Virus record (IMG/VR): IMGVR_UViG_3300045988_158394
Origin: a virus
Lineage: Duplodnaviria > Heunggongvirae > Uroviricota > Caudoviricetes
Strand: one strand, 5' to 3'
DNA: 64,000 nt
Under the pieces are notes generated by a model. That model made no database searches, was not told the origin of the DNA, and worked only from the letters and a program-made list of their open reading frames with translations. Below are positions 11,435-47,480 of the stretch, piece after piece. Both the position numbers and the translations under genes were made by a program. Positions within the stretch are counted from its first letter, which is position 1. The number at the start of each line of letters is the position of its first letter.

Positions 11435-11566
11435 TTAATAGTCATTGATCGCAAAGGCGTAAACTTGCCAAAGGTATTTCGTATAATCGGTACAAATCTC
11501 CTTTACGCTTGATGCTGCATTAACAGTCCCAGCCATAAATAATAACGATAGTAATAGTTTTCTCAT
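11435..11566 (-). CDS. 43-aa secreted peptide (MRKLLLSLLFMAGTVNAASS...)
   Basis: Not in the ORF track (under 60 aa); AGGTGAGG RBS 6 nt before ATG; clear signal peptide. Confidence 0.35.
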   Translation of the reverse strand: MRKLLLSLLFMAGTVNAASSVKEICTDYTKYLWQVYAFAINDY

Positions 11567-11662
11567 TATAACCTCACCTGCCTTATAACCCATTTAGGGT
11601 ACATATTTTCGCCTTTAAAAAAAAGAGGTTATTAGATCCAATTGTGTATTTATTAAGCAGAT

Positions 11663-11679
11663 AATGCTCTAATAAATTT
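11663..11679 (+). promoter_or_regulatory. C1-repressor operator (16/17 match to ATTGCTCTAATAAATTT) ahead of the immI operon
   Basis: AATGCTCTAATAAATTT in the AT-rich intergenic region upstream of c4/icd/ant. Confidence 0.65.
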
Positions 11680-11866
11680 GTATTTTTAAGTCACGAATGC
11701 TATCTTTTCGCATCATATTGACCTTTTAATCGTTCAGGCTTATAGTTCCGCCGTCGTAGCAAATTCTGCGACCGGGTTTAGCAGCCTGAATGATTGTGCG
11801 GACAGCCGCAGATATCCGATATTGCGGTATTTTTGTGTCCGTAAAACCGCGTTACGCCCAAATTAT

Positions 11867-11943
11867 GGTGGGGCGTGATGGGGAGGCTTCGGCCTGCTGG
11901 TTTCACAATCGCCAGTCTGCTAACCCCGTCACGTCCTGCCACC
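11867..11943 (+). ncRNA. c4: c4-type antisense RNA (tRNA-like fold, about 77 nt)
   Basis: GGTGGGGCGTGATGGGG...CCCCGTCACG..CCTGCCACC forms a closed stem; internal CCTGCTGG and TCTGCTAAC are complementary to TAGCAGG and TTTAGCAG just downstream, ahead of icd. Boundaries approximate. Confidence 0.5.
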
Positions 11944-11993
11944 TGTTTAGCAGCGGGTAGCAGGTTGTTAAACCTGATTGTGAGGCCGTAACT

Positions 11994-12215
11994 ATGGTTA
12001 ATGCCAATCCTTGCGCACGCCCAGAATTCATCTGGCGTTTCTATTCCTGTAAAAAACACCACTATCACTTCGTTATCGCAGCAACTGAAGACGAAGCACG
12101 CTCTCAATTGCCTGATGGCCCCTGCATTTTTACTGCCCGTTTTTCAACTAACTCGCGCAATTCACTTAGTTACTGGAGCCTCCCCTTCTCTGCCGACGTT
12201 CAGGGGGTTTTATGA
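11994..12215 (+). CDS. icd: Icd (interference with cell division), 73 aa
   Basis: 73-aa ORF immediately after the c4 region; stop overlaps the ant start (ATGA); same length and position as P1 icd. Confidence 0.7.
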   Translation: MVNANPCARPEFIWRFYSCKKHHYHFVIAATEDEARSQLPDGPCIFTARFSTNSRNSLSYWSLPFSADVQGVL

Positions 12216-42035: not shown

Positions 42036-42614
42036 GTGTTGCGCTTTACTGAGGAAGAGTTTCAGGCTTTTAGTGAGCGTCGAAATAAGGGGCGGTCCAG
42101 GCCAAAAACCAAAAAGGATCCATTCTTATCGCTTGCGCCGGTAAAAGAAGTTTCTCCACATGCGAAGGCACTTGCAGCACTTGCAAAGAACCCAGACCTG
42201 CGCGACGGAAATTGCGAGCACTTCGAGCAGGTTTTCATTTTTGATTACTTCGAACGCAAGCACCCTGACATCTATGAGCTGTTGCATGCAACGCCTAACG
42301 GAGGGAAACGTTCAAAAGCAACCGCCGGGAAAATGAAGGCTGAAGGGCAGAAAAAAGGTTATCCGGACATGAGTCTCGATAAAGCATGCGGTATTTATCA
42401 CGGCATGCGAATTGAGCTTAAAGAACCAAATGGTAAAGCCCCGACGAAAGAGCAGATCGCCTGGATGCGCAGGCTTAGAGAGGAAGGTTACTACGTCGTT
42501 CTTGCGTATGGTGCAGAACAAGCGATAACCGCCATCCTGGAATACATAAGCCTTAAAAAGGGTGAGGCTATTGAGCATGTATTGAACGGCGACAAGTGGT
42601 TGTATGCTGCTTAA
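42036..42614 (+). CDS. VRR-NUC-like nuclease domain protein
   Basis: 192 aa; GTG start; C-terminal region (GYPDMSL...GMRIELKEPNGK...QIAWMRRLREEGYYVVLAYG) resembles VRR-NUC (PD-(D/E)xK). Confidence 0.5.
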   Translation: MLRFTEEEFQAFSERRNKGRSRPKTKKDPFLSLAPVKEVSPHAKALAALAKNPDLRDGNCEHFEQVFIFDYFERKHPDIYELLHATPNGGKRSKATAGKMKAEGQKKGYPDMSLDKACGIYHGMRIELKEPNGKAPTKEQIAWMRRLREEGYYVVLAYGAEQAITAILEYISLKKGEAIEHVLNGDKWLYAA

Positions 42615-42810
42615 AATAATAAATTAATTAGTACATATGCGCCATTTGATATAGCGCACATTAACATCGGGAGAATAATCGTGTCATCCAAGGCTAATTA
42701 TGAATCGCTGGCATCGATCATGCCGCGTAATGAACAGGAAACAGATGCTGTAGTGGACCCTGTAATCGCTGAAATGAATGCTCGCCTGGAGGCTGAATTT
42801 GCAGCTGAGA

Positions 42811-43440
42811 ATGAACATACCACGCAGGGCGACTAGGACTGTTTTTTGTGTCGGTAGCGGTCCGTCACTCACTCGTGAGGACTGTGCTGCTATAGAAAAA
42901 ACTGGCTGTTCAATCATCGCGGTTAACAATTCCTGGCAGATGTTCGATGACATTTATGCCTTATACGCCGGTGATTTGTCATGGTGGAAGCAATACGGAT
43001 CCACCATACCGGGAGGGAGATTCCGCAAAGTGACAGCCAACCTGGCGGCGGCGAAATCATTTTCGTTGGAGTACAGGCGATATTGTGGACCGGCGGAAGG
43101 GGTAAATAGCGGCGCGCAGGCTATCAGTCTGGCTGCTGAATCAGGGGCTGAAGTAGTGGTATTAGTCGGCTATGACTGTTCTCTGCAAAACGGCCTTCAT
43201 TGGCATGGCGCGCACCCTCAAGCCCTACGGAATCCAACGCAGGTGTCTATTTCAAAATGGCAACAGCAGTTCCTGGATACCCGCAAAAAACACGCAGATT
43301 TACATATTTTGAATGCAAGTAGGAGCAGTGCAATTCAATGTTTCCCAAGAATAAATTTAGAGGCAGTGATCGCGTTATTATCGTCGGCAGTGGCCCAAGC
43401 GCCGCAAACTTTGTTGCGCCGCGCGGAGTGCCGATTATAG
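42811..43440 (+). CDS. DUF115/Maf-like protein (putative glycosyltransferase-like), copy 1
   Basis: VFCVGSGPSL motif followed by IIAVNN; start placed at ATG 42811. Confidence 0.5.
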   Translation: MNIPRRATRTVFCVGSGPSLTREDCAAIEKTGCSIIAVNNSWQMFDDIYALYAGDLSWWKQYGSTIPGGRFRKVTANLAAAKSFSLEYRRYCGPAEGVNSGAQAISLAAESGAEVVVLVGYDCSLQNGLHWHGAHPQALRNPTQVSISKWQQQFLDTRKKHADLHILNASRSSAIQCFPRINLEAVIALLSSAVAQAPQTLLRRAECRL

Positions 43441-43964
43441 CGGTCAATGGGGCCATCGACTGGCTGAACCGCGCTTCTTATTTTTTCACACTTGATCCAT
43501 CGCCAGACAATATGCGGCGCGTTGGTCGTGGCCGCCGTCGCCGTGGTGTTTGTTATTGCATGGCACTACCCGATGTTAAAGAACGTGAAGTCAGAGACGG
43601 CGTTCTGTGCTTCCGTCGTGTGGCTGAACGTGGCATGGAGCCAAAAAATACGAATTCTCCCGAGTGGTGGGCGTGGCGCTGGTCCGCACATTTCGGACTT
43701 TGCGAAGATGAGAATGAAATTGCCAGCGGCAATAGTGCATATGGTGCTCTGAACCTGGCTTTCCATATCGGATTCAAACATGTCGCCCTGGTGGGCGTTG
43801 ACGCTACACAAGAACCACGCGTTCACTCCGGCGGCACGCCAAAAAATCTAAGTCACCTGCCTTTGTTATTCCAGTCTGCGCGTGAACGGATTGACGTTGT
43901 TTCATGCGGGAAAATGGGAGGTATTCCGCAGATGACTCTTAAAGAATGGCTGAAGAATACATGA
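43338..43964 (+). CDS. DUF115/Maf-like protein, copy 2 (paralogue)
   Basis: [10 protein letters not shown]...IIAVNGA; AGGAGCAG RBS; overlaps the previous ORF's 3' end. Confidence 0.5.
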
Positions 43965-44638
43965 TGGCACCAACAATTTATCACCGTATCGACGGTACCA
44001 AATACAGGAATATCTGGGTTGTTGGTGATCTGCATGGTTGCTACACCAGACTGATGTCCGAACTCCATCGTGTGGATTTTGACCCAGCGCAGGATTTACT
44101 GATATCGGTCGGCGACCTTATCGATCGCGGTACTGAAAATGTCGAATGTCTGGAACTATTGCAGATGCCTTGGTTCAGGGCAGTGATGGGGAACCATGAG
44201 CGGCTGATGATTGATGCGTTAAGTCCTGATGGCAACGTGAATAACTGGCTAATGAATGGCGGACAATGGTTCTTCATGCTGGACACTGATCAGGAAATAT
44301 TAGCCAGGGCGCTGGTGGAGCTGGTAAAGCGTCTGCCCTATATCATTGAGTTGAACACCGGGCAAGAAACTATCGTTATAGCCCATGCCGACTATCCGGA
44401 TAATGAATACCAATTCGGTAAGGAGGTGCCGCTTTTCAACGTTGTCTGGGCGCGCGAGCGTATCAGTGATTCGATGGATGATATTGGTGGCGAAATTTCG
44501 GGCGCAGATCGTTTTATCTTTGGTCACACTCCGGTGAAAAGCCCGAAGACATTCTGGAATCAGCAGTATATCGACACTGGTGCCGTATTTTGCGGAAACC
44601 TGACATTGATGAAAGTGAAAGGTGATGGTGCAGCATGA
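43946..44638 (+). CDS. Ser/Thr protein phosphatase (lambda PPase-like metallophosphatase)
   Basis: GDLHG, GDLIDRG and GNHE metallophosphoesterase motifs. Confidence 0.8.
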
Positions 44639-45336
44639 AGATTGCTTTAGTTCTTCGCTCTGGTGGTGACTATAACGCTTCCGATGTGCAGTGGCTGGTT
44701 AATCAACTGCCAAAAGGCTATGAAATTATTTGCCTGACAGACCTGAAGCGTTTACATGTACCTGGCGTCAAAGTTGTCCCATTGATCAACCAGTGGCAAA
44801 AGTGCCGTGGCTGGTGGGCGAAAATCGAGTTGTTCCGACCGGATATAACCGATGATCTGTTCTATCTGGATTTGGACACGGTTATTGCCGGTGATATACG
44901 CCCAATCCTTGAGAATCCACCAACCTGCTTCACCATGCTTAGGGATTTTTACCATCCACAATATCGTGGTAGCGGTGCCCTGTGGATACCAAATAGTGTA
45001 AAAGCACATATCTGGAGTTCATTCTGGCAAGATCCGGAAGGTTGGATTGCTCGTTGTGTCACTACTGAGTGCTGGGGTGATCAGGGGTTCTTACGGAAGG
45101 TTATGGGCGATGATACACCAGCATTTCAGGATCTGTATCCAGGATGGTTTGTAAGTTACAAGGCCGATGTTGTGGAACCTGGTTCAAAATATGCGAGCGC
45201 GCGTTACTCCAGGGGGAATGGGGCATTACCAAAGGACTGCCGAATAATCTTTTTCCACGGCAAACCGCGGCCTCGCGAAGTGTCAGAGGATTGGCTTCCC
45301 CTCATTAGCTCGTTTTTTGAGCGAGAATCAGAATAA
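44635..45336 (+). CDS. Putative glycosyltransferase (DxD motif)
   Basis: 233 aa with [12 protein letters not shown] resembling GT-A fold DxD glycosyltransferases. Confidence 0.4.
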
Positions 45337-45337
45337 T

Positions 45338-45404
45338 ATTGCTCTAATAATTCCATATTTTTAAAACGTGATGTACACTCATCACGTTTTTTATTAGAGC
45401 AATC
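45338..45404. promoter_or_regulatory. Paired inverted C1-operator-like sites flanking a perfect 11-bp hairpin
   Basis: ATTGCTCTAATAATTCC (plus) and GATTGCTCTAATAAAAAA (minus) bracket AAAACGTGATG-TACACT-CATCACGTTTT. Confidence 0.6.
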
Positions 45405-45417
45405 TATAAGGTGCACT

Positions 45418-45636
45418 ATGTGGCCATTCCGACGGAAATATCACTACTGGCTGATCGCCTTTGTTACGCCGACCGGCGGTATCAGGCATGTCATCACCAG
45501 GTATCGCAACAAGAGACTCACCTTAGCCAGAATTTTACAGGCTGCCATAGGTGAGGGACTGGATACAAATTGCGTAGTCCTTCCACCTTCATACTTAGGA
45601 AAAATGACCGAAGCACAAGCTAATACGGAACTTTGA
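45418..45636 (+). CDS. Hypothetical small protein
   Basis: 72-aa ORF following the operator pair. Confidence 0.4.
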   Translation: MWPFRRKYHYWLIAFVTPTGGIRHVITRYRNKRLTLARILQAAIGEGLDTNCVVLPPSYLGKMTEAQANTEL

Positions 45637-46973: not shown

Positions 46974-47480
46974 TTGAGTATTTTCAATAAACACGCACAC
47001 CAGGAACGTCCGTATATCGTCATAGTCGATATTGATGGGACGATATCAGAGGCAACGGAAGACAGGCTGCATTTGCTTCCACCACCTGGCAAAGGTGCAT
47101 TAACAGAGCACTGGAACGAGTTTAACCTTGCCTGTGACACTGATGCTCCCATCACTCCAGTTATTGATATGGTGCGCCAGTTATTTAACGTTTACACGGT
47201 CTGGTTTGTAACCGGGCGCTGTGAGATAGCCAGGGATAAAACACGAGCCTGGTTGCGTAAGCACGTAACAAACGGGGCTGAGCCTTTGCTATCTATGCGT
47301 CCTGCCACCGATGACAGAAATGACGGCCCAGCAAAGATTGCTCTCCTTAAGAAAATTGGTCTAAGTAAAATCGCGTTCGCGCTGGAAGATAAGATTGAAG
47401 TGGCGCGTGTTTTCAGGAGTCACGGCGTACTTACGTTAATGGTCAGGGAGTATGAAAACGCGCTTCTCCATCAACAGTAA
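46974..47480 (+). CDS. HAD-family phosphatase (DxDGT motif)
   Basis: TTG start after GAGGAGGG; IVIVDIDGTIS HAD motif I. Confidence 0.55.
   Translation: MSIFNKHAHQERPYIVIVDIDGTISEATEDRLHLLPPPGKGALTEHWNEFNLACDTDAPITPVIDMVRQLFNVYTVWFVTGRCEIARDKTRAWLRKHVTNGAEPLLSMRPATDDRNDGPAKIALLKKIGLSKIAFALEDKIEVARVFRSHGVLTLMVREYENALLHQQ

Follow-up and report, generated by a model that had tools for sequence, protein, structure and literature searches.

The pmgO, pmgP and pmgQ genes of P1-type phages encode a conserved module of predicted glycosyltransferases, possibly involved in protein glycosylation

The genes pmgO, pmgP, ppp and pmgQ of phage P1, named hdmB, hdmC, ppp and hdmD in phage P7, belong to an operon that has long been annotated (AF234172, AF503408) and is uncharacterised. 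The present analysis concerns this locus in a stretch of 64,000 nucleotides (nt) from a virus of the Caudoviricetes (IMG/VR record IMGVR_UViG_3300045988_158394; hereafter the window), which as a whole represents a P1-type phage. A nucleotide search with positions 42600-45500 of the window returned full-length matches of 98-99% identity to P1, P7, RCS47, SJ46 and other P1-type phage-plasmids. The four open reading frames (ORFs) are these genes, and their order, overlaps and flanking operators agree with the P1 and P7 records; the locus is a known one and not a chance pattern. Since the four genes were already catalogued, the contribution of this work is (i) the observation that PmgP and PmgQ, in most cases along with PmgO, occur as a unit in phages of Proteobacteria and Bacteroidota that are not related to each other, and (ii) comparative evidence that narrows their function from vague "sugar transferases" to a specific hypothesis. 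We hold with moderate confidence that PmgO, PmgP and PmgQ form an accessory protein-glycosylation module, possibly based on 3-deoxy-D-manno-octulosonic acid (Kdo).

The closest described systems differ from this locus in several respects. The Maf flagellin glycosyltransferase (5mu5) has 632 residues and extra domains, whereas PmgO and PmgP are single domains of 209 and 208 amino acids (aa). Maf systems are associated with flagellin and nonulosonic-acid genes, whereas no flagellar or flagellin gene and no gene for the synthesis of pseudaminic, legionaminic or neuraminic (Pse/Leg/Neu) nonulosonic acids was found in any module neighbourhood examined. The similarity of PmgO and PmgP to the GT42 enzymes Cst-I and Cst-II of Campylobacter jejuni is marginal (E 0.005), and "sialyltransferase" is for these two proteins a fold label and not a function. 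PmgQ is shorter (233 aa) than the GT8 enzymes glycogenin, Gat1, GlyE and LgtC and matches no Pfam family at E≤1, Glyco_transf_8 included. The P1 record gives an identity of 64% between Ppp and the lambda phosphatase (NinI/ORF221), with which Ppp shares the Metallophos domain and the canonical metal-binding motifs. Virion glycosylation in mycobacteriophages and in the chlorovirus PBCV-1 involves other enzyme families, and neither a sialyltransferase-fold enzyme nor a link to Kdo has been described there; in those systems, unlike in P1, the glycan itself has been observed.

Loci from species-level genomes and from viral contigs were scanned with the profiles of the three families. The 17 species-level loci span Enterobacteriaceae, Zhongshania, Commensalibacter, Methylophilaceae, Brevundimonas and Sinomicrobium (Bacteroidota); the full set of three genes is present in 10 of them, and PmgP together with PmgQ in 13. 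In all 22 viral loci outside P1, PmgP and PmgQ are neighbours, and 19 of these loci also have PmgO. Among the named phages that carry the module are Citrobacter phiNP, Cronobacter JK004, the E. coli phages EP_H11 and IME392, and jumbo phages that infect Xanthomonas and Stenotrophomonas. PmgP is the most conserved member (mean column identity of 57% over 40 homologues), and an exhaustive profile search of 1.84 billion representatives retrieved 244 PmgP clusters at E≤1e-10. Furthermore, the three proteins are found in natural fusions: PmgO with PmgP (P0361), PmgP with PmgQ (P0369 and P0436), PmgQ with PmgP (P0457), and PmgQ with PmgP and an S-adenosylmethionine (SAM) methyltransferase in a triple fusion (P0420). 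In addition, ORF373 of XacN1 (L110 6630-7946) joins a TylF-type sugar O-methyltransferase to PmgQ. Conserved synteny and natural fusions together indicate that the three enzymes act in one pathway, and we consider that PmgO, PmgP and PmgQ are probably all glycosyltransferases of that pathway. The first-pass annotation of the locus had suggested a modification pathway that included the phosphatase. Synteny across distant phages and the fusions make such a pathway plausible, but without Ppp: its gene is confined to P1 and closer relatives of P1, where it separates pmgP from pmgQ; five other P1-like lineages lack it, as do all non-P1 modules examined. On this restricted distribution, a part for Ppp in the sugar pathway was rejected, and Ppp is best seen as an independent, separately acquired insertion of the P1 lineage.

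Other arrangements were also encountered. In P0473 and P0493, PmgP is followed by a second, more divergent domain. A variant module devoid of PmgP and PmgQ combines a PmgO-like protein, a protein of about 290 aa and Methyltransf_23 (L004 6001-8007 and L191 8001-10052); this PmgO-only variant precedes the terminase in L004 and baseplate and tail-fibre genes in L191.

PmgO and PmgP both carry a VGSGPS motif (residues 14-19 and 16-21, respectively), and the GSGPS motif initially noticed in the two small proteins is thus borne out in the translations. Pairwise BLAST aligns them over 36 aa only (39% identity, E 0.003), and their family profiles match over the full length (hhalign, 97.5% probability, E 4.9e-12). 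PmgO and PmgP are therefore old paralogues; the relationship proposed for the two DUF115-type ORFs is real, although distant. Their earlier description as DUF115/Maf-like agrees with the fold search. PF01973 (MptE-like, formerly DUF115/MAF_flag10) scores 23.4 bits on PmgO and 21.0 bits on PmgP, both below the gathering threshold of 34.6, and these matches cover only the last 35 or so profile positions. Because the Pfam scores are sub-threshold, the family assignment rests on the fold search; precomputed PF01973 matches are present on some homologues of both families. The structure model of PmgO has the Rossmann-like fold common to Maf, MptE and GT42 enzymes, and its best structural match, the one with the most residues aligned (n = 162), is a Maf glycosyltransferase. 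Two histidines of PmgO (H130 and H132, in a lower-confidence loop of the model) and one of PmgP (H173) are invariant and are candidate counterparts of the catalytic histidine that Cst-II has behind its lid region. In PHROGs, the PmgO family is labelled "alpha-2,3-sialyltransferase" and the PmgP family is unnamed (PmgP against phrog_2111, E 4e-132).

Only two profiles were informative against solved structures, that of PmgQ and a joint profile of PmgO and PmgP. Searches of the PDB with single PmgO, PmgP or PmgQ sequences and with separate PmgO and PmgP profiles gave nothing significant, and NCBIfam contained no match for PmgO, PmgP, PmgQ or Pap, the product of a gene located downstream of the operon. 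The best PDB matches of the joint profile were seven entries of Campylobacter Cst-II (E about 0.005, 19.9 bits), and no MptE, pyrophosphokinase or other kinase was matched. The alignment with Cst-II, which is marginal at this E value, pairs SGPS with GNGPS, AVN with RCN, and NSG..LxGxD with TSG..LSGID. As a side observation, the name "norphogenetic protein", now propagated in NCBI and UniRef for PmgO/PmgP homologues of many genera, is a typing error that comes from the pmgM note of the P1 record.

PmgQ is predicted, from profile and fold, to be a divergent GT8-type GT-A enzyme. The fold search assigned it to the GT-A fold with GT8 structures as the closest, and its profile matched GT8 structures in the PDB (Gat1, E 1.7e-8; GlyE; glycogenin, E about 5e-5). 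The DxD motif recognised in the first-pass annotation is a DLD (D79-L80-D81) that is invariant in 40 homologues. The C-terminal histidine of GT8 enzymes binds Mn2+. PmgQ has an HGKPRP motif at residues 208-213, with a conservation of 90% or more at H208, G209, P211 and P213, and this His-Gly-x-Pro-x-Pro region aligns with the "HF.G..KPW" of Gat1 and glycogenin, the GT8 metal-binding motif. PHROGs labels the family "glycosyltransferase". Some Salmonella homologues of PmgQ are named "phosphohydrolase", a name apparently borrowed from the adjacent ppp.

The genes that accompany the module indicate what kind of chemistry it performs. Within or beside it are often found (i) SAM methyltransferases, of the FkbM type in L103 and of the Methyltransf_23/24/25 types elsewhere, (ii) a second small GT-A protein, and (iii) a GT4-like enzyme. 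In four P1-like relatives (L005, L112, L123 and L132), kdsB, which encodes the cytidine monophosphate (CMP)-Kdo synthetase, is located 2-3 kb farther downstream, behind pmgS; with TIGR00466, the L005 copy reaches 270 bits, for an equivalog cutoff of 155. These four copies are only 33-50% identical to each other, hence their association with the module is old. The methyltransferase, extra glycosyltransferase and kdsB partners imply that the chemistry involves sugars. All named hosts are Gram-negative bacteria that bear lipopolysaccharide (LPS).

The location of the module, most often immediately behind the major capsid gene or between lysis and terminase genes, is informative about the acceptor. 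In HK97-type prophages, it directly follows the major capsid gene, or the capsid and connector genes, in at least 10 independent loci (L097, L104, L105, L117, L119, L124, L130, L131, L189 and L190), of which L104 belongs to a Pseudomonas prophage. In lambdoid prophages (L003, L107, L113 and L121), it is located between the lysis cassette and the terminase. On five Pseudescherichia chromosomes (L091-L095; for example L091 281-13419), the three module genes are interspersed among genes of adhesins, namely an inverse autotransporter of 1178 aa (IAT_beta and seven Big_1 domains), a Big_1+RCC1 protein of 999 aa and a Big_1 protein of 494 aa; this is possibly a bacterial locus for adhesin glycosylation that uses the same enzymes. 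Taken together, capsid or virion neighbourhoods in phages and adhesin genes in bacteria favour a protein acceptor. DNA, virion proteins and host receptors had been listed as possible targets, with no choice made among them; the genomic context favours protein over DNA.

We propose that, while the phage grows lytically, PmgO, PmgP and PmgQ would cooperate in the cytoplasm, perhaps within a complex, and would build a short glycan on a protein. PmgO and PmgP would be single-domain enzymes of the Maf/GT42-sialyltransferase fold, and PmgQ a GT8-like retaining hexosyltransferase relying on its DxD motif and C-terminal histidine. In phages, the likeliest acceptor would be a virion protein (capsid, connector or tail component) and the likeliest product an acidic sugar of the Kdo type, with a hexose added before or after it. 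Ppp is part of the operon but not of the module. That the acceptor is a protein appears plausible to us, with some reservation. Characterised glycosyltransferases of the Maf/GT42 fold use CMP-activated ulosonic acids, and, to our knowledge, CMP-Kdo is the only CMP-ulosonic acid of E. coli K-12, which makes no CMP-sialic acid. These two points and the presence of kdsB in relatives make Kdo the leading candidate for the acidic sugar; its identification as Kdo, with CMP-Kdo as the donor, is nevertheless tentative. A bolder proposal, in which PmgO and PmgP would represent a new class of sialyltransferase-fold, CMP-Kdo-dependent protein O-glycosyltransferases that decorate, with PmgQ, virion proteins and some bacterial adhesins with a Kdo glycan, seems to us unlikely as a whole. 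The module may also confer a fitness benefit.

Several points weigh against protein glycosylation and its link to Kdo. We know of no Kdo transferase with this fold, those of CAZy families GT30, GT73, GT99 and GT107 being different. The link of PmgO and PmgP to Cst-II is weak (E 0.005), and the predicted fold of PmgP is taken from its profile match to PmgO. Moreover, kdsB is confined to some P1-like relatives and is not found in P1 itself, and unrelated moron insertions, too, typically lie near late genes. A glycan on P1 virions is reported neither in the cryo-electron microscopy paper of 2026 nor in the virion proteome of 2022, neither of which was looking for one. Lastly, single deletions have no phenotype in plaque assays: Gonzales et al. 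(PMC9024508) obtained in-frame deletions of pmgO, pmgP, pmgQ and ppp that all plaque normally.

The same four genes were found to be non-essential by CRISPR interference (CRISPRi) knockdown (PMC10695390). Viable deletions and knockdowns leave the labels "putative morphogenetic function" and "head morphogenesis" unsupported; as all four genes are non-essential, they are accessory and not morphogenetic. None of the four gene names occurs in the main text of PMC9024508, including its account of the virion proteome. Our literature search found no paper that assigns a function to the PmgO, PmgP or PmgQ families, and a search for DUF115 or MptE-like proteins in phages returned nothing relevant, its matches concerning DUF1156.

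The operon comprises pmgN-pmgO-pmgP-ppp-pmgQ, and the features of the window are as follows.

42589..42617, + strand: sigma-70 promoter-like site (scan match GCGACA-17-TAAAAT), which overlaps PpmgN of P1
42621..42637, - strand: C1 repressor operator Oppp (former Op83), a monovalent C1 operator placed by homology to the P1 annotation
42681..42836, + strand: pmgN, ORF of 51 aa, first gene of the operon, annotated in P1 and specific to the P1 lineage
42811..43440, + strand: pmgO, 209 aa; translation from another ATG, at 42778, yields the product of 220 aa annotated in P1
43338..43440, + strand: pmgO/pmgP overlap of 103 nt, pmgP being in the -1 frame relative to pmgO
43338..43964, + strand: pmgP, 208 aa, distant paralogue of PmgO
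43946..44638, + strand: ppp, 230 aa, lambda-type (NinI/PrpA-like) Mn-dependent Ser/Thr protein phosphatase
44635..45336, + strand: pmgQ, 233 aa, predicted divergent GT8-like GT-A glycosyltransferase
45338..45354, + strand: C1 operator OpmgRa, pattern match with 3 mismatches, annotated in P1

The four ORFs had been correctly placed in the first-pass annotation, all on the + strand. It had, however, described the two paralogues as flanking the phosphatase, which is wrong: in the order pmgO, pmgP, ppp, pmgQ, the phosphatase gene lies between pmgP and pmgQ and not between the paralogues. The genes are tightly packed, since pmgN and pmgO overlap, as do pmgO and pmgP (103 nt), pmgP and ppp (19 nt) and ppp and pmgQ (4 nt). 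In the P1 record, PpmgN (L001 5983-6009) corresponds to positions 42582-42608 of the window, and a late promoter is located farther upstream, before pmgL. Canonical C1 operators at 41714 and 45338 bracket the operon region. OpmgRa marks the start of the next operon (pmgR-pmgS) and hence the 3′ boundary of pmgN-pmgQ. Oppp has 5 mismatches to the C1 consensus in the window and, being weaker than the others, falls outside a search that allows 3 mismatches. The operon would be repressed by C1 in a lysogen, as the P1 annotation implies.

Ppp is a Ser/Thr phosphatase of the lambda type, as initially described: it carries the Pfam Metallophos domain (60.2 bits for a cutoff of 21.5) and the GDxHG, GDxxDRG and GNHE motifs, which read GDLHG, GDLIDRG and GNHE in its translation. 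It matches phrog_246 (NinI-like phosphatase) with an E value of 1.5e-113. Its NCBIfam scores for the E. coli phosphatases PrpA (274 bits; PRK11439, 274) and PrpB (241 bits) are both under the equivalog cutoffs (326 and 332).

Some further observations concern the surroundings of these genes. No Pfam match was found for pmgN, which is absent upstream of PmgO in L005; it was reported as essential by CRISPRi (PMC10695390) versus non-essential by deletion (PMC9024508). The C1 operator consensus ATTGCTCTAATAAATTT has 11 matches in the window at up to 3 mismatches, for 0.4 expected by chance; their positions include 31810, 41714, 45338, 45387 and 47480, which fits an immunity network of the P1 type. 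The GC content falls to 0.364 at 10001-12000, compared with about 0.47-0.49 elsewhere, close to a C1 operator match at 11663; this part of the P1 genome was probably acquired separately. Downstream of the operon, P1 pap (46974-47480 of the window) encodes a HAD phosphatase of the PNKP-phosphatase type, HAD_PNKP being its sole family match and its PDB matches being weak. In L005 (10658-11892), a Pap homologue overlaps the stop codon of kdsB by 4 nt. Pap was considered as a Kdo-8-phosphate phosphatase, a candidate that was not retained since it has no support beyond this adjacency.

Other functions of the module have to be weighed against protein glycosylation. The one that survives best, although we find it improbable, is a remodelling of the LPS core, the receptor of P1, to which Kdo and a hexose would be added during infection, so that masking of the receptor would lead to superinfection exclusion or to a smaller loss of progeny on debris. 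The C1 repression of the operon in lysogens implied by the P1 annotation would leave no room for lysogenic conversion. Elsewhere, the module belongs to late structural operons, after the capsid genes, when little time is left to renew surface LPS, and its non-phage copies lie among adhesin genes and not in waa clusters.

It is still less probable that PmgO and PmgP are kinases similar to MptE or thiamine pyrophosphokinase, which would pyrophosphorylate a small molecule or a sugar and pass the product on to PmgQ. Taken by itself, the fold that Maf, MptE and GT42 enzymes share is compatible with sugar transfer from a CMP-sugar as well as with pyrophosphoryl transfer. However, the best structural match of PmgO is the Maf glycosyltransferase, and the best profile matches are the seven Cst-II entries, none being MptE or a pyrophosphokinase. 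In addition, the partner genes encode glycosyltransferases, sugar methyltransferases and a CMP-sugar synthetase, and ppp and pap are absent from most modules.

Hypermodification of DNA, in which the transferases would glycosylate bases of the phage DNA and thereby protect it from nucleases, is very unlikely. Phage glycosyltransferases often target DNA, and genes expressed shortly ahead of packaging would fit this function. However, the Pfam-annotated neighbourhoods contain no TET/JBP enzyme, hydroxymethylase or 5-hydroxymethyldeoxyuridine (5-hmdU) kinase, nor any methyltransferase plus TET, and the module is also present in bacterial adhesin loci. We know of no resistance of P1 DNA to restriction enzymes, which also counts against this hypothesis. 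According to a preprint, there are phage enzymes that attach Kdo, heptose and other sugars to 5-hydroxymethylcytosine, but the Kdo-DNA transferase described there has a GT-B fold and requires a methyltransferase plus TET (10.1101/2023.12.21.572611). Furthermore, the four deletions leave the sensitivity to type I restriction as in the wild type, with wild-type efficiency of plating on EcoA, EcoB and EcoK hosts (PMC9024508). This result also goes against the anti-restriction role suggested in the first-pass annotation, which is unlikely as far as type I restriction is concerned.

The overlap of about 100 nt between the two DUF115 ORFs, which had been suspected to reflect a fusion or a frameshift, is real (103 nt) and belongs to a conserved arrangement. 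Its length varies between loci: 94 nt in the lambdoid Citrobacter prophage L003, 109 in the distant P1-like contig L005, 49 in L089, 40 in L090, and just 7-16 in L098, L102 and L104. In P1, L003, L005 and the other overlapping cases, pmgP is always in the -1 frame. Its start codon lies within the codons for the conserved C-terminal "CFP" motif of PmgO and is fixed 17 residues before the SGPS of PmgP in all six overlap loci (ATG in five and GTG in L097), with an AGGAG ahead of it in P1 and L089. Past this start, the PmgP frame is conserved whereas the PmgO tail is not. Thus pmgO and pmgP are two genes with separate initiation and probably with translational coupling, and the overlap is neither a frameshift site nor a sequencing or assembly error. 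A programmed -1 frameshift that would yield a PmgO-PmgP fusion protein in P1 is highly improbable and was rejected, despite the constant -1 frame, the two X_XXY_YYZ heptamers of the P1 overlap in the pmgO frame (TTTCCCA at 43341 and AAATTTA at 43353) and the natural in-frame fusion P0361, because slippery heptamers are not conserved across homologous overlaps (they differ between P1, L005, L089 and L097 and are lacking in L003 and L090), about one per 256 codons is expected by chance, the overlap varies in length and the start of pmgP is fixed.

Since pmgP starts inside pmgO, automatic annotation often truncates or omits it. The called pmgP is truncated after the SGPS motif in L003 (6510-7130) and L005 (6525-7151), and no coding sequence is annotated between 7037 and 7602 in phage EP_H11 (L109), where pmgP spans 7001-7609.

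Although P1 is among the phages most used in genetics, the four genes are still labelled "putative morphogenetic function", and the module to which three of them belong recurs next to capsid genes in many phages of Gram-negative bacteria. The protein-glycosylation hypothesis is directly testable with existing P1 mutants. Even without a glycan, the conservation of the module across bacterial phyla needs explaining. More generally, if the hypothesis is true, glycosylation of virion or other proteins, which is documented mainly in mycobacteriophages and giant viruses, would also be common in proteobacterial phages. If PmgO and PmgP do form a new class, protein glycosylation based on Kdo would be seen for the first time, and P1 would turn out to carry a modification that had escaped notice. 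If the link to Kdo is true, the enzymes that transfer Kdo would gain a further family and protein glycans a new kind, which could have a bearing on virion stability, on immune recognition of therapeutic phages and on phage engineering.

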